Shown: piece by piece, positions 1,046-10,899 of the stretch
Numbering within the stretch: the stretch's first letter is position 1
Layout: each line of letters opens with the position of its first letter
DNA from: Candidatus Nomurabacteria bacterium RIFCSPHIGHO2_01_FULL_37_25
Lineage (GTDB): Bacteria; Patescibacteriota; Minisyncoccia; Phycocordibacterales; UBA9973
NCBI GenBank assembly: GCA_001786765.1
Contig: MFTH01000003.1
Span: 1 to 44,509, forward strand
DNA length: 44,509 bases
Direction of reading: 5' to 3'
The notes under the pieces: generated by a model
What the model was told of the DNA's origin: nothing
The model's input: the letters and a program-made list of their open reading frames with translations, nothing else
Databases searched by the model: none
Made by a program: the position numbers and the translations under genes

Positions 1046-2644
1046 TTATTTAAATAATTCCATAAAAGAAGCAAGGACAAGACCAAGTATATTTGTGGTT
1101 GGTATTCGCGAGTGGGGTTGCAATTCAGGAGGAGGTTGCAAATTTTCACCTGATGGTATTTGGTAACTTCCCTCATTAGGCATCAATGTGTCTGAAGTTG
1201 GTGGAGTCATTTCCCATGGTGTACGAAATTCTTCCATTGGTTGCTGAAACTGATGTTGGTATTGTTGATTATATTCTTGCTGATATTGCAGATCGTATTT
1301 TTGATTCAAATCTTTCGGTGGTAGAAATTCCCCGTCTTTAAATTTCATCATTTGGTTTCTCTCAATATTTTCACCACCATTTGCTCCTTCTTCCTTGTTA
1401 CTTTCTCTTTTTAATTCACCTCTATCATCGATATCTATATTCATTTCTCTTTGCGGTGGAGAAAATTTCTGACATTCCTCCATATGATCTTTACAGTAAG
1501 TCATACACTCGTCTGGTCCCTTGCACCCTCCTGGACCGCTAAAATCCTCTCTGTCTCCTCGGCTTTCTGTATTTTCTTTATCCCTTTGTTCGCCGGCATT
1601 AAAATCACCACCCATTTGAGTCATAAAACCTTCAAAGCATGTATGCATTTTTTCTCCCATTGCTTCTCCGCCAAAAAACTCTCCGGACTGCATTTTCTCC
1701 AATCCTCCCGGACCAAGCGCTTCTTCGAGACACGCGATTACCTCGGGTGGAGCGTCTTCAAAAACTTTTTCTATTTGTTTTCGACCTTCTTCCATACGAC
1801 GCAGATCATCTTCTTTTAAAACTCCGTTTTCTTTGGCCCATTCGAAACATACTTGCTGGTTGCCGGCTTGTTCACAAAAAGCTTGGCATTGTCGGCCCTT
1901 ACACCCTCCCGGACCCCGTCCGCCTGCTTTTTTAAAAGCTTCAATGTGTTTTCTTTCTTCTTCATGTATCATGCCGTGTTTTTCGGCAAATGAAATACAT
2001 TCGTCAAAGTGTTCATCTGACTCACAGTAAGCTTCGCATTCGTCTTTGGACTTACATCCACCGGGAGTTTCTCCACTCTTCATTAATGGCATAAATTTTT
2101 TTGCTTGTTCAAGTTCTTCTGGAGGTAAGAACCCGCTTTCTTCGGCAAAGGCTAGACATTCTTCCATGTGATCTGGATTTTGACAATAATTCTCGCAGGC
2201 ATTTTTATTACGACAATCACCCGGCATTTTTTTACCACTTTGTATTATGGCGCGCACTTTTTTGGCTTCTTCTAAATCCTTGCCTTTCATTAAGCCATTC
2301 TCTTCTGCAAAAGCAACACATGTTTCAATATTGGCTACGTCGTCACAATAATTTTCGCAAGAAGCTTTAGAATTACACCCCCCTGGCCCACCCTTAACCC
2401 CGAGCACTTTTTCTGAAATACGAATTTCTTCCTCTGGTAGAAGCTGGTATTTTTTGGCGAAAGCCAAACACTGCGTTGCATTTTCATCAAGTTCGCAATA
2501 GGCGAAACACTCCGCCTTGTCGCTACATCCACCGAGTTCCATCACAGGAAAAACAATTTCCGACGCTTCATTCTGAGCTAACACAAAAGAAACAGAAAAT
2601 ATTCCCAAAGAGATAAGTAAAATTGTAAAAAGTTTCTGTTTCAT
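1046..2644 (-). CDS. Secreted/membrane-anchored protein with six Cys-rich repeats (PGGC-x5-C-x3-C-x8-C)
   Basis: 532 aa; signal peptide-like N-terminus, repeats such as GPGGCNSKASCENYC, Q/P-rich tail, C-terminal hydrophobic segment. Confidence 0.85.
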   Translation of the reverse strand: MKQKLFTILLISLGIFSVSFVLAQNEASEIVFPVMELGGCSDKAECFAYCELDENATQCLAFAKKYQLLPEEEIRISEKVLGVKGGPGGCNSKASCENYCDDVANIETCVAFAEENGLMKGKDLEEAKKVRAIIQSGKKMPGDCRNKNACENYCQNPDHMEECLAFAEESGFLPPEELEQAKKFMPLMKSGETPGGCKSKDECEAYCESDEHFDECISFAEKHGMIHEEERKHIEAFKKAGGRGPGGCKGRQCQAFCEQAGNQQVCFEWAKENGVLKEDDLRRMEEGRKQIEKVFEDAPPEVIACLEEALGPGGLEKMQSGEFFGGEAMGEKMHTCFEGFMTQMGGDFNAGEQRDKENTESRGDREDFSGPGGCKGPDECMTYCKDHMEECQKFSPPQREMNIDIDDRGELKRESNKEEGANGGENIERNQMMKFKDGEFLPPKDLNQKYDLQYQQEYNQQYQHQFQQPMEEFRTPWEMTPPTSDTLMPNEGSYQIPSGENLQPPPELQPHSRIPTTNILGLVLASFMELFK

Positions 2645-2961
2645 TCAAAAGGATTTTTTGTTTTAAAGGGATTAATTTTTTCTGTTGGACTAAGATCCGG
2701 CACATTCTTTACCGGGTTTGTCTCTACCTGCACTTTAGGTGGCTGACTTAACACTTCTACTGCTTCTTCGATAGTTTTCACACTAGTATCTTTTTCTTCG
2801 ATATCTCTTCCTATAAAATACCAATAAAACCCCACAGTAATTATAATAATTGCTGTAATCACTCCGACTAAAACATTTTTATTTATACTATTTGTATTGT
2901 CCACTAGATTTAAGTATACACCTAAGTTAATTGTCAAACAATATATTGTATAGATACTCAC
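2641..2961 (-). CDS. Small single-TM hypothetical protein (true start may be GTG at 2904)
   Basis: ORF between co-oriented genes, one TM helix VLVGVITAIIIITVGFYWYF. Confidence 0.7.
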   Translation of the reverse strand: MSIYTIYCLTINLGVYLNLVDNTNSINKNVLVGVITAIIIITVGFYWYFIGRDIEEKDTSVKTIEEAVEVLSQPPKVQVETNPVKNVPDLSPTEKINPFKTKNPFE

Positions 2962-7861: not shown

Positions 7862-8476
7862 TTACCAAGGAAGTAAATACGCAGTAAATGATGTACACTC
7901 ATCTACAGTTCGTAAGTCCATACGGTATTTAGAACCAAGTACAAAATAATCTTGCGGTGTTGTTGTACTGGTAAATAAAGGACCCTGATCATGCCAATTA
8001 ACACCATCATTCGAATAGTGTAAGGCATAAGTAGCTGAAGCTTGATTACTATGAATAGAAATTCTTGAATACTCAGTTGTATCCATTATTTGAGAATATT
8101 CGCCCACCCAACCACCACATTTATTAACGAAAAGAGTTACTTTTTTAGCTTGCGGACCCAACTCTTCAAGATTTCCTGAATCACCCTTATCACCTTTTAA
8201 TCCTTGTGGACCTGTTTCTCCGATTGGACCTCGAGGACCAACATCGCCAGTATCGCCCTTGTCGCCTTTATCACCCTTTATACCAACAACATTCCAAGTT
8301 AATAATTGATCATTTTTTTTACAATCAGCTCTCCTGAAACCATCACCAATAACATAAACCAAGCCACTCTTTTTGGCACAGATAGTAATTTCATTACCAG
8401 TTGCTTGCGAATAAGACCAAATACCAAGAACCAGAGCGAGACTAAAAATTCCAACACCTATAATCTTCATTTTCAT
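7862..8476 (-). CDS. Secreted collagen-like protein
   Basis: Signal peptide plus 13 consecutive Gly-X-Y triplets (GIKGDK...GDSGNL). Confidence 0.8.
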   Translation of the reverse strand: MKMKIIGVGIFSLALVLGIWSYSQATGNEITICAKKSGLVYVIGDGFRRADCKKNDQLLTWNVVGIKGDKGDKGDTGDVGPRGPIGETGPQGLKGDKGDSGNLEELGPQAKKVTLFVNKCGGWVGEYSQIMDTTEYSRISIHSNQASATYALHYSNDGVNWHDQGPLFTSTTTPQDYFVLGSKYRMDLRTVDECTSFTAYLLPW

Positions 8477-8515
8477 ATAATATATTTCAACCTTAATCTA
8501 ATAATAAAATGGTAG

Positions 8516-8660
8516 CAAAAAGCCCACCACAGGTAGAGACCGAAGTCTCTCGCACAGGTTTCCCTGTACGGCAGATCGTGCAACCCCATGATGGGTTTTT
8601 TATTCACGATCTGACTTTTAACCATACCTTAAACTTTGAAATTCAAGGGTTAGGTCTCTA
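8516..8660 (-). ncRNA. Structured cis-regulatory/antisense RNA with c4-like architecture
   Basis: Minus strand has hairpins GTACAGG-GAAA-CCTGTGC and GAGAC-TTCG-GTCTC, closing stem CCCATCAT/GTGGTGGG plus U-tract, and nested complements TAGAGACC/GGTCTCTA and CAGATCGTG/CACGATCTG. Confidence 0.6.
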
Positions 8661-8804
8661 TTAAGTTTTATAATTTAATGCTATCACGGAACTGGCTAAA
8701 AATGAAGTTTTTTCGGTTTCAGACCTTGTAAAATCAGTAAAAAAGTGATATTATGTATATCACCTATACAAAAGAGTGATTTTGAATCAACCAATTCTAT
8801 CCTG

Positions 8805-8876
8805 CTCCGGGGGTAGGGATCGAACCTACGACCAATCGCTTAACAGGCGATCGCTCTACCACTGAGCTACCCCGGA
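8805..8876 (-). tRNA. tRNA-Asn(GTT)
   Basis: 72-nt cloverleaf TCCGGGG...CCCCGGAG; anticodon arm ATCGC-CTGTTAA-GCGAT; T-loop GGTTCGAT; full CCA not encoded. Confidence 0.97.
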
Positions 8877-9119
8877 ATATTTATTTTTTAATTTTTCTTT
8901 ACCATATCCTGATTTCCAATATTTTTCTCTGCTTCTCGCATAAGTTCTATTTGTCCCAGTTTTTTCAAAAAATATCTGAACCCAAGGACGAAAACCTTTT
9001 GTAGAAAAAACTTTTCCATTATTATGTTCCAACAATCTTTTTCCTGGGTTTTGGCTCATACCTACATAAATTCTATCGTCCTTTGTGCTTTTAATAGCAT
9101 AAACAAAAAATTCTTTCAT
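8856..9119 (-). CDS. Stand-alone GIY-YIG nuclease
   Basis: FVYAIKS...IYVGMS...RLLEHN...AR-REKYWK motifs; the last codons (SGVAQW*) lie inside the tRNA 5' end. Confidence 0.9.
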   Translation of the reverse strand: MKEFFVYAIKSTKDDRIYVGMSQNPGKRLLEHNNGKVFSTKGFRPWVQIFFEKTGTNRTYARSREKYWKSGYGKEKLKNKYSGVAQW

Positions 9120-9133
9120 AATTTTATGATATC

Positions 9134-9187
9134 ACAGGCGATCGCTCCCTGCCTGCCGGCAGGCAGGTACCACTGAGCTACCCCGGA
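9134..9187 (-). pseudogene. Duplicated 5' half of tRNA-Asn interrupted by a 20-bp palindrome
   Basis: Identical to the tRNA 5' half up to ...GCCTGT of the anticodon loop once 9148-9167 is removed. Confidence 0.9.
9148..9167. repeat. Perfect 20-bp palindromic element
   Basis: CCTGCCTGCC|GGCAGGCAGG. Confidence 0.9.
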
Positions 9188-9203
9188 ATATTATTTATAA
9201 TAC

Positions 9204-9250
9204 AAACTGAGAGCTGACGTTTCAGTCAGTTTCCCGACCTTGCGTCGGGA
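9204..9250. repeat. Composite hairpin element
   Basis: AAACTGA...TCAGTTT plus TCCCGAC-CTTGC-GTCGGGA, followed by a tRNA-end-like CTACCCCCGGAAT. Confidence 0.65.
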
Positions 9251-9363
9251 CTACCCCCGGAATGTATTTTAATTTATAAAGAACCTAGATTATATTAGCA
9301 GAAATTATCAAAAAAACAAAATAAAGATGGAAACTTTATGAGTTTATGCTAATATGTTTTTAT

Positions 9364-10899
9364 ATGAAGAAAAAAATAAATTTTCAAGAAATCAAATCTT
9401 TTTTATTAAAAAACAAGAAAATATCTATTCCTGTTTTTATCGCAATTATTGTTATCGTTTTTTTTGTTTTTCGCGCTTCGGAATCAGATGTTGCGAGTAT
9501 AGAATCCGTAAAATTCACTGATTTAAAGAAATCTGTGCGCGCGACCGGTCAGGTAGTTTCAGAAACTGACATAAGCCTTTCCTTCAACAAGGCAAGCGTA
9601 GTCAGATCTGTAAGAGCAAAGGTAGGGGACAAAGTTAATTCTGGGATGATTCTAGCGACACTTGACCAAGGACAAGCGTTTGCGACGCTAACAGAAGCCA
9701 AAGGCAAGTTACTAGGAGCAGAAGCAAAATACAATAAAATTTTAGAAGGGTATTCAAATGAAGAAATAATTTTAGCTGAAGTTGCCTTTAAAAATGCGCA
9801 GACAGATTTGGTAAATAAAAAAAATAATCAAATCACAGTCGTAGCGAACGCCTATCAAACATTACTCAATTCATCTATTGCGGCTTTTTCTATTTCCACA
9901 GGAGATACTCAAATCGCTCCGACTATTACTGGCACATATGTTCTAGAGAAAGAAGGAGATATAAGAATTTCCACCTATCAAGGGGGCAGTTGGTATTTCG
10001 ATGGTTTTGGTTTGGTAAATGCTTTTGGAGTTGTGAGTAGTACTACGCCTCAGCCTATTGGAGAATCCGGTTTGTATATACAATTTCCAACCACTTTTAC
10101 TCAAGGTAACTGGATTATTTCTATTCCAAATAAAAAAGCGACAAATTATTTAACAAATTACAATGCATACAAGAGCGCCATTGAAGACCAGACTATCATC
10201 GTCGCAACTGCGCAATCTCTTGTTGACCAAAGACAAGCAGAACTTAACCTTAAAAAAGCAGTTGCTAGAAATACTGATGTGGATATTGCCAAAGCAGAAG
10301 TCTTGTCAGCCGAAGGCGCTTTACAATCCGCGCAGTCTTTGTATGAAGATACTATTATCCGCGCTGGGACTTCTGGCACAATCACCAAAGTTGATATAAA
10401 ATACGGCGAACTTTCTGAGATAGGCAAGCCAGTGATTACTTTAGAGGATGTGGGCAATTTATATATTGAAGCTCTGATTAACGAAGCTAACATCGCTTAT
10501 TTAAAAATGGGTCAAAGCGTCAGTATTACTTTTGACGCTTTTGGTAAGGATAAGAATTTTACTGGAGTAATAGCTCATATAGACCCATCAGCAGAGACAA
10601 ATAATGGCGTTGTTAATTATAAAATTAAAGTTTCTTTGAATGAAAAGGATGAAACTATTCGTCCCGGGATGAATGCTAATATTGATATCTTGGCGGGGCA
10701 AGTATCTAATGTTTTGGCAATACCATATATTGCTATAAATAAAAAAGACGGGAAATATTTCGTGGATTTTATTACTAATGAAAAAAATAAAAAATACGAA
10801 GATAGGGAAGTCCAAATTGGTTTCTTGGGGGACAATAATTTGGTTGAAATAACTTCAGGCTTGAAGGCTGATGATAAAGTAGCTCTTAGAAAAGATTAA
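9364..10899 (+). CDS. HlyD/MacA-family periplasmic adaptor subunit
   Basis: N-terminal TM, VRAKVGDKVNSG lipoyl half, long coiled coil, IRPGMNANIDI and LVEITSGL; start moved to MKKK at 9364. Confidence 0.9.
   Translation: MKKKINFQEIKSFLLKNKKISIPVFIAIIVIVFFVFRASESDVASIESVKFTDLKKSVRATGQVVSETDISLSFNKASVVRSVRAKVGDKVNSGMILATLDQGQAFATLTEAKGKLLGAEAKYNKILEGYSNEEIILAEVAFKNAQTDLVNKKNNQITVVANAYQTLLNSSIAAFSISTGDTQIAPTITGTYVLEKEGDIRISTYQGGSWYFDGFGLVNAFGVVSSTTPQPIGESGLYIQFPTTFTQGNWIISIPNKKATNYLTNYNAYKSAIEDQTIIVATAQSLVDQRQAELNLKKAVARNTDVDIAKAEVLSAEGALQSAQSLYEDTIIRAGTSGTITKVDIKYGELSEIGKPVITLEDVGNLYIEALINEANIAYLKMGQSVSITFDAFGKDKNFTGVIAHIDPSAETNNGVVNYKIKVSLNEKDETIRPGMNANIDILAGQVSNVLAIPYIAINKKDGKYFVDFITNEKNKKYEDREVQIGFLGDNNLVEITSGLKADDKVALRKD

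Follow-up and report, generated by a model that had tools for sequence, protein, structure and literature searches.

A GIY-YIG nuclease gene and a palindrome-split tRNA copy at the single tRNA-Asn gene of a Nomurabacteria genome: a candidate integrase-free cassette

Introduction

How can a bacterium carry a nuclease gene within its single gene for tRNA-Asn and still possess an intact tRNA? The question is raised by a locus of Candidatus Nomurabacteria bacterium RIFCSPHIGHO2_01_FULL_37_25, which lies in a stretch of 44,509 nucleotides (nt) at positions 1 to 44,509 of contig MFTH01000003.1 (assembly GCA_001786765.1; the whole stretch is called the window below). There, an open reading frame (ORF) for a small GIY-YIG nuclease overlaps the start of an intact tRNA-Asn gene and is itself preceded by displaced pieces of the 5' part of the same tRNA, one of which is split by a perfect palindrome. 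The genome, of the Patescibacteria type, comprises 726 kb in 17 contigs at 36% G+C and encodes 36 tRNAs, the sole tRNA-Asn among them being the copy at 8876..8804 (ARAGORN). Numbers of tRNA genes were taken from ARAGORN runs on single sequences; a run on a multi-record FASTA file silently skips most tRNA genes. Coordinates at the locus refer to the minus strand unless marked otherwise.

We propose, with a probability of about 0.55, that this locus is a resident copy of a cassette of ~0.33 kb, free of an integrase and probably selfish, which sits in the single tRNA-Asn gene at 35|36 and whose nuclease acts on the cassette's own hairpin. As read from the sequence, the cassette would consist of a 20-bp palindrome, a spacer with a putative -10-like promoter, the gene for an 87-amino-acid (aa) GIY-YIG protein, and a replacement tRNA leader together with tRNA nt 1-34. 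Cassettes of this anatomy recur at 21 tRNA species, with junctions fixed within a lineage, a patchy distribution, empty alleles in congeners and selection on both the protein and the palindrome; from these observations we infer that the cassette moves.

Results

Anatomy of the tRNA-Asn locus

The locus is composed of the following features, given with strand and basis of the assignment.

8804..8876 (-): intact tRNA-Asn(GTT); ARAGORN, and Rfam RF00005 with 73 bits
8856..9119 (-): gene for the 87-aa single-domain GIY-YIG nuclease; ORF list, PF01541 with E 1.1e-13
9120..9133 (-): 14-nt spacer, which with T9134 gives an extended -10-like TGaTATCAT, 6 nt 5' of the ATG
9134..9147 (-): orphan tRNA-Asn nt 21-34, GAGCGATCGCCTGT, ending within the anticodon at ..GCCTGT, the insertion site of the congeners' group I intron
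9148..9167 (no strand): perfect 20-bp palindrome CCTGCCTGCCGGCAGGCAGG, called PAL below; sequence
9168..9187 (-): orphan tRNA-Asn nt 1-20; sequence
9188..9205 (-): AT-rich spacer or leader of 18 nt, ttgtattataaataatat, separating the inner orphan from the older insertion
9206..9211 (-): older orphan piece CTCAGT, equal to tRNA nt 11-16; sequence
9214..9250 (-): double GC hairpin, an older cassette without an ORF; sequence and fold
9251..9261 (-): native tRNA-Asn 5' end TCCGGGGGTAG (nt 1-10 plus one extra G), now orphaned; comparison with empty alleles
9262..9340 (-): native tRNA-Asn leader and promoter-like region, tttctgctaatataat..gttcttt..aaatacat; conservation in congeners

When the palindrome is removed, the inner orphan half is identical to nt 1-34 of the intact tRNA at 34/34 positions. 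The GIY-YIG ORF runs into the intact gene, its last seven codons and TAG stop being tRNA nt 1-21. PAL lies on one side of the nuclease gene only, and 28 nt separate its end from the ATG. A first-pass annotation, made from the letters of the window, had described the tRNA 5' half at 9187-9134 with its end at GCCTGT in the anticodon, the TGaTATCAT motif 6 nt before the ATG (9134..9117) and the tRNA sequence in the last codons of the nuclease gene, and all three are present as described. Its outline of a small GIY-YIG cassette, with the displaced 5' part upstream and the intact tRNA downstream, also holds: the unit measures ~0.3 kb, and no integrase or recombinase is found among the genes neighbouring it. 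A generic promoter scan left the TGaTATCAT motif unflagged and gave a match at 9333..9304 in the native leader, the total of the scan not exceeding the shuffled expectation.

Such an arrangement could in principle be produced by an assembler that joined tRNA-like repeats of a mixed community. The metagenome is complex, and partial alignments to this locus come from many contigs with foreign tRNAs. However, Logan unitigs reproduce 8522-8831, 8831-9171 and 9153-9700 without any difference; identical unitigs at a uniform ~20x span every junction in four independent runs from groundwater and soil, and the same architecture is found in dozens of independent assemblies. An assembly artefact therefore has a negligible claim on the locus. 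Skip-type alignments in the public runs come from foreign tRNA genes that map onto both tRNA copies, and are uninformative on excision.

The native gene end and nested insertions

Where the original tRNA-Asn gene began is indicated by comparison with congeners. A leader of the form tttctgctaa.at...gttcttt...aaa.acat lies directly 5' of uninterrupted tRNA-Asn genes in six loci (L230, L232, L234, L237, L238 and L243), and the same conserved leader precedes the outermost fragment in the window, from 9262 outward. Because the native leader sits directly before this outer fragment, 9261..9251 is the original 5' end of tRNA-Asn, and the whole of 9250..8877 is therefore inserted sequence, acquired in two steps. 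Judged from the sequence, the locus is the product of two serial insertions, an older double hairpin in the D loop and then the palindrome and GIY-YIG cassette inside the regenerated gene. The two outer hairpins are tcccgac-gcaag-gtcggga at 9250..9232 and ctgac-tgaaac-gtcag at 9229..9214, and the 76-nt stretch of the outer fragment folds with z = -4.2. The first-pass annotation had seen here a possible third fragment split by a hairpin element; the fragment is indeed present at 9261..9251 and 9211..9206, but it is the native 5' end beside the native promoter. Empty tRNA-Asn alleles, which the same annotation had pointed to as a check, exist in congeners with the native promoter directly before the tRNA.

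Two simpler histories were considered and rejected. Simple tandem duplication is ruled out by the leader of the inner copies, which differs from the native leader, and by the ORF between the copies; a target-site duplication through staggered cuts is ruled out by the position of the palindrome inside, not beside, the repeated segment.

Recurrence at other tRNA genes

The survey covered 61 genomes, namely the window genome and 60 relatives, of which 36 belong to its genus and 24 to further families of the order. Small GIY-YIG ORFs numbered 111 and were spread over 50 of the 61 genomes. A same-strand tRNA was counted as adjoining when its start lay -109 to +16 nt from the ORF stop; by this measure 35 of the 111 ORFs adjoin a tRNA, against 0.46 expected by chance (binomial P about 3e-55). 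The association of homologous GIY-YIG genes with tRNAs, by which the first-pass annotation had proposed to judge its own reading, is thus clearly present. About two thirds of the small GIY-YIG ORFs lie away from tRNAs.

The 35 tRNA-adjoining ORFs span 21 anticodon species, and in nine cases the stop of the ORF is the tRNA's own U8-A9-G10. Most of them follow one grammar: a leader with tRNA nt 1..x, a GC-rich palindrome, tRNA nt x+1..y (a piece of 5-16 nt), a spacer, the ORF, and then a leader with the intact tRNA. The junction y ranges across the family from nt ~9 to nt ~43, lies mostly in the D arm and is specific to the lineage. The idea of a general homing to anticodon loops, put forward from the window by itself, has to be given up for the same reason.

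The window genome itself holds further examples. At C16:18855-19250 (+), a second full cassette comprises tRNA-Phe nt 1-10, two hairpins (agccgac..gtcggct and tcccgac..gtcggga), nt 11-15 and the gene for an 86-aa GIY-YIG protein; 3 nt separate the stop of this gene from the intact tRNA-Phe. Two duplications have no ORF: at tRNA-Ile(GAT), C10:70158-70240 (-), nt 1-10 are followed by a double CCCGAC-type hairpin and nt 11-17, and at tRNA-Lys(CTT), C1:13768-13846 (+), there are two tandem 38-nt units, each with nt 1-12 and no hairpin. The older insertion of the window shares its layout with the tRNA-Phe and tRNA-Ile cases. Over the whole genome, 4/36 tRNAs have exact 9-mers of their 5' end upstream, and 0/36 have them downstream. 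Hairpin fragments without an ORF are also found in relatives, both at tRNA-Asn (L233, L236, L240, L242) and at other loci (L107, L110, L121, L136).

Fragments of this kind bear on a reading in which there is no mobile unit. The GIY-YIG gene would then be a host gene co-transcribed with tRNAs, and the orphans would be by-products of hairpin insertions, similar to miniature inverted-repeat transposable elements (MITEs), and of local duplications. The commonness of ORF-less hairpin fragments (own genome tRNA-Ile, the congeners' tRNA-Asn, other loci) fits this reading, as do a GIY-YIG clade with a conserved position downstream of tRNA-Gln and no hairpins, the purifying selection on the protein described below, and PAL itself, which is mostly found alone among the matches listed. 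It is at odds, however, with the ORF standing always exactly between the orphan and the intact copy, with the nesting of the insertions, and with close relatives of the nuclease occupying different tRNAs in different genomes. Nor does it account well for the distribution: among 41 congeners the cassette of the Asn lineage occurs in the window genome only, and homologues of the nuclease with up to ~60% identity are found in another phylum, the Bacteroidota. We consider a non-mobile host gene distinctly unlikely.

Further loci of the survey deserve mention in their own right. One congener (L053; G006:C15) presents the mirror image of a cassette, with an intact tRNA-Phe, a 100-aa GIY-YIG ORF and, directly after the stop, 38 nt that repeat the tRNA 3' part exactly. 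In another genome (L002; G015:C1), tRNA-Thr(GGT) and tRNA-Thr(CGT) lie side by side, and both are accompanied by an orphan 5' copy that the identical palindrome splits at GGTA|GAGC; the nuclease ORF is present at the first tRNA-Thr only, a 13-nt spacer standing where the second would have it. Away from tRNAs, the window genome encodes two GIY-YIG proteins of 84 aa each, ~85% identical to one another (C8:59382-59612 (+) and C5:2343-2573 (-)), whose genes are bracketed by the inverted repeat GGATCCCGTTAGAGAT / ATCTCTAACGGGAT of the ATCCCGTTAGAGAT type; the same repeat flanks the relatives L006, L009 and L031.

The Asn cassette lineage in metagenomes

The closest metagenomic proteins (P0002-P0018) are 68-79% identical to the 87-aa nuclease, and among the 16 closest that were read, the ends of 11 are ..(Y/H)S(G/P/V)VAQ(R/W), which is translated tRNA-Asn nt 1-18. 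Seven relative loci were fetched (L262-L269), with nucleases about 68-78% identical to that of the window; 7/7 lie in tRNA-Asn with the palindrome at orphan nt 20|21, and the orphan ends in ..CCTGT in the window and in 7/7 relatives. The spacer from the orphan to the ATG measures 10-15 nt in the relatives, usually with a TATAAT-like motif. With regard to breakpoints, which the first-pass annotation expected to be non-random, the junction is thus fixed within the Asn lineage (window plus 7/7) and differs between lineages. A GIY-YIG cassette at tRNA-Asn was found in 2/41 congeners, the second being genome G002 with an unrelated GIY cassette and other break points.

In five relatives the palindrome is uninterrupted and has 0-1 mismatch, and L266/L267 have an insertion in its middle. 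Over the five uninterrupted relatives there are 4 changes in 100 nt, compared with a synonymous difference pS of ~0.55. The palindrome is conserved far beyond neutral expectation and therefore belongs functionally to the unit; it is no chance addition of later date. The first-pass annotation had correctly placed the 20-bp palindrome in the orphan half; as a secondary event it cannot stand, since the palindrome travels with the lineage and is strongly conserved.

Two of the relatives depart from the window in their orphans. L268 has a second tRNA-Asn copy, palindrome-split and nearly full length (nt 8-76), 3' of the intact gene. In L269 the orphan is the genus-type tRNA-Asn allele, and the intact gene, with acceptor TCCGGTG and anticodon stem CCTCC, clearly represents another allele. 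In L266/L267, a gene at 1473-2649 (-) for a large serine recombinase (Resolvase, Recombinase and Zn_ribbon_recom domains) adjoins the 3' side of the cassette-bearing tRNA-Asn; it probably belongs to an unrelated integrative element using the same tRNA.

The nuclease and the case for homing

PF01541 covers residues 4-76 of the 87-aa protein and is the sole domain found. The catalytic positions Y7, Y18, R28, H32/N33 and E65 align with SLX1 and are invariant in seven members of the lineage. Among solved structures, the best matches are SLX1 (E 7e-4) and the UPF0213 protein EF2693 (E 0.018); TIGR01453 matches residues 5-36 only, at E 0.007 and far below its cut-off. Domain searches found no DNA-binding domain in the protein, and thus no C-terminal module of the kind that homing enzymes possess. 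By these comparisons the protein would be a single-domain GIY-YIG nuclease of the Slx1/UPF0213/Ssn type, and it shares two traits with Ssn, namely a single domain in a protein of ~90-100 aa and a gene beside a hairpin repeat that is dispersed in the genome (9 PAL copies). Among the seven lineage genes the pairwise ratio of nonsynonymous to synonymous divergence (dN/dS) is 0.10-0.29, with dS at 0.7-2.1; the protein has therefore long been maintained by selection.

These features have to be set against a classical free-standing homing endonuclease, which would cut the cassette-free tRNA-Asn in the anticodon loop, the repair of the break then copying the ORF with its spare 5' half and co-converting the palindrome. 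Several observations of the preceding section agree with homing: the junction is identical in the window and seven lineage relatives, all seven metagenomic relatives occupy one site, the distribution in congeners is patchy, and in L268 and L269 the orphan piece beside the junction differs from the intact tRNA of the host, as a co-conversion tract would. SegB of phage T4, which homes as a free-standing GIY-YIG enzyme within a cluster of tRNA genes, is a precedent (PMC2330249). The protein of the window, however, is a catalytic domain of ~80 aa, whereas every characterised GIY-YIG homing enzyme relies on a DNA-binding domain, which is missing here. Moreover, the intact tRNA next to the ORF would stay a target, and homing gives no role to the palindrome despite its conservation far beyond neutrality. 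Homing of the classical type is, on balance, unlikely.

A group I intron at the same site

In ~11/41 congeners, a group I intron of 257-590 nt (RF00028, 59-69 bits) interrupts tRNA-Asn, its insertion point being exactly 3' of ..GCCTGT. This site is the same phosphodiester at which the orphan of the window ends (35|36). The intron-bearing loci include L246, L247, L248, L249, L250, L251, L252, L254 and L256, and ARAGORN calls none of these tRNAs. The longer introns hold a 104-aa ORF with an HNH-like motif (..ELHH..LLCANCHRE..) and no Pfam match. TGgTATAAT lies 6-7 nt ahead of the ATG of this ORF, which is also the design of the cassette spacer. In L262, the cassette and the intron are found in one gene at the same site.

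The anticodon position of the Asn junction may owe something to this intron system. A stronger version would have the Asn lineage arise from or exploit the tRNA-Asn intron, either by being installed where the intron's HNH-like endonuclease had cut at 35|36 or by replacing the intron while keeping its leader and promoter design. The exact coincidence of the sites in ~11/41 congeners, the mirrored motif and spacing before the ATG, and the joint occurrence in L262 are what speak for such an origin. In the window, however, there is no ribozyme remnant: a search of 8400-9500 with Rfam gave no match to Intron_gpI, not even with E values up to 10 admitted. At other tRNAs the cassettes have their breaks in the D arm, from which introns are not known; the 14 nt between palindrome and junction fall within the usual 5-16 nt, so that a chance coincidence has odds of roughly 1 in 10; and the intron ORF has no Pfam match. 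We regard an intron origin as very unlikely.

The palindrome beyond the cassette

The exact 20-mer also splits the orphan in cassettes at tRNA-Thr(GGT), tRNA-Leu(CAA), tRNA-Leu(GAG) and tRNA-Ser(GCT) of other genomes, two of these four belonging to other families. It occurs in at least 120 contigs when one genome per species is taken (~1 expected by chance), and among the matches listed its hosts include Patescibacteria, Bacteroidota (with cultured isolates), Omnitrophota, Planctomycetota, Proteobacteria and others. Many copies are found in non-tRNA contexts, often between short direct repeats, and several in orphan tRNA fragments without an ORF.

The window genome has 9 PAL copies and at least 25 CCCGAC-type hairpins, at least 12 of them of the TCCCGAC..GTCGGGA form. 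Three PAL copies (C8:677, C10:70325, C10:109588) mark the exact centre of imperfect, MITE-like palindromes of 170-200 nt, which have an extra hairpin on one arm. At C10:36488, a copy with one mismatch lies within an apparent zinc-ribbon coding region (..CPICKT..). Taken together, the palindrome itself behaves like a tiny mobile unit, with a link to the nuclease that is strong in cassettes and not exclusive. In the nuclease tree, which is weak for a protein of ~80 aa, the four closest relatives share an identical palindrome and the other carriers are scattered.

Surroundings of the cassette

The genes neighbouring the cassette encode an HlyD/FtsX/ABC transporter set, a collagen-like protein, an NYN-domain protein and an M23 peptidase. 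A full-length LOOT RNA motif (RF03000) is found at 8535-8656 (-), 148 nt downstream of tRNA-Asn, with 83 bits against a gathering score of 46; terminator-like hairpins then follow.

Discussion

An orphan (nt 1..y) followed by the cassette and an intact tRNA is exactly what would be expected if an element with the leader and 5' part of a tRNA recombined with that tRNA's gene, through one reciprocal crossover or through a copying event during break repair. After a crossover 3' of the palindrome, the complete gene would contain the palindrome and the only tRNA-Asn would be lost; exchanges on the 5' side alone would be viable. We propose that the palindrome is always in the orphan, with a short piece after it, because only such 5'-side exchanges survive. 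Most likely, the nuclease nicks beside its own palindrome when this is folded as a single-stranded DNA (ssDNA) hairpin, in the fashion of Ssn, and does not read the tRNA sequence itself. A nick beside the orphan would be recombinogenic. The junction lies 5-16 nt from the foot of the hairpin across cassettes, and this distance is an indirect hint of Ssn-like cutting near the hairpin. Transcripts started at the cassette promoter would continue into the tRNA, and the host would depend on the 5' half supplied by the cassette.

Several points weigh against this proposal of a mobile, hairpin-guided cassette. The assembled contigs of the public runs contain no excision product, no circle and no empty allele of the same strain. 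The mismatch between the orphan and intact alleles in L269 is not what a simple single crossover would predict, and the model leaves unexplained how a cassette gains the 5' part of a new tRNA. In other genomes, a GIY-YIG gene lies within 700 nt of ~6/125 PAL copies among the matches listed, and PAL may be propagated by something other than the GIY-YIG nuclease. The nuclease tree appears to match the type of hairpin only partly, and strict co-evolution is not claimed.

The findings also invite a wider and more tentative view, which we hold as a possibility with the odds against it. The cassettes might form a new class of autonomous, integrase-free elements of ~0.3 kb, whose sole protein would be an Ssn-type hairpin-guided ssDNA nuclease, which would carry a palindrome-interrupted tRNA leader and 5' part, and which would integrate in Campbell fashion or by break repair. 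Gene-less palindromes and ORF-less fragments, in at least 10 phyla, would then be non-autonomous relatives.

If mobile, the cassette would be among the smallest protein-coding mobile elements known, and would represent a third way to inhabit an essential RNA gene, by bringing a spare 5' half and with neither intron splicing nor an integrase. It would give a natural role to a large orphan family of minimal GIY-YIG proteins (Ssn/UPF0213-like), and one also to the GC-rich palindromes that litter the genomes of Patescibacteria and Bacteroidota. For annotation, the loci yield pseudo-tRNA fragments and ORFs with their stop inside a tRNA, and pipelines mishandle both. Pairs of palindrome and nuclease with differing specificity are possible ssDNA tools, as has been proposed for Ssn.

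Mobile elements that use tRNA genes are best known from integrase islands and prophages. Such elements encode an integrase of the tyrosine or serine type, are kilobases long and usually duplicate the 3' portion of the tRNA. The cassette resembles them in that the tRNA is restored by the element's copy and a displaced partial copy is left behind, a Campbell-type product; unlike them it has no integrase, duplicates the 5' part and measures ~0.33 kb. A comparable replacement of a gene end reportedly occurs in the mitochondrial atp6 gene of Allomyces macrogynus, where a mobile endonuclease ORF is said (Paquin, Laforest and Lang, in 1994) to bring a substitute gene end and to leave the old end as a pseudo-fragment. 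Both are nuclease ORFs in an essential gene with a replacement for the displaced end; the Allomyces case concerns a mitochondrial protein-coding gene whose 3' end is replaced, and has no palindrome.

SegB of the phages T4 and T6 is a free-standing GIY-YIG homing endonuclease encoded in a tRNA gene cluster (PMC2330249; PMC13096335). As in the cassettes, its GIY-YIG gene lies among tRNA genes and outside introns; it is selfish and spreads with flanking tRNA sequence, as the cassettes probably do too. In contrast to the 87-aa protein, SegB is full-length with a DNA-binding part, cuts double-stranded DNA and is phage-borne, and has neither an orphan tRNA fragment nor a palindrome. Group I introns with homing endonuclease genes are known from the anticodon loops of bacterial tRNAs (reviewed in PMC3984707). 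Those in the tRNA-Asn of congeners use the same phosphodiester and have a small nuclease ORF after a TATAAT-like motif just past the sequence of exon 1, whereas the window has no ribozyme, and the function of its tRNA is kept by duplication, not by splicing.

The closest known system is, by its protein, that of Ssn, a 94-aa single-domain GIY-YIG enzyme which binds its hairpin repeat (NTS/SRM) only as ssDNA and cuts a few nt away, and whose genes are flanked by cognate hairpin repeats in an architecture like that of insertion sequences (Chenal et al. 2025, Nat Commun, PMC11893778). The cassette shares with it the single-domain GIY-YIG protein of ~90 aa, encoded beside a GC-rich hairpin repeat that is also scattered genome-wide, and the CCCGAC-type hairpins described here resemble the core TTCCCGCG..CGCGGGAA of the Ssn repeat. 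It differs in that the hairpin of the window is one-sided and lies inside an orphan tRNA piece; the Ssn paper contains no mention of tRNA and no duplication of a host gene end (PMC11893778). Searches of the full-text literature returned no description of tRNA-embedded GIY-YIG cassettes or of the 20-mer. New with respect to these systems are the fixed junction and palindrome position across the Asn lineage, the measurements of selection, the identification of the outer fragment as the native gene end, and the exact coincidence of the cassette junction with the intron site.

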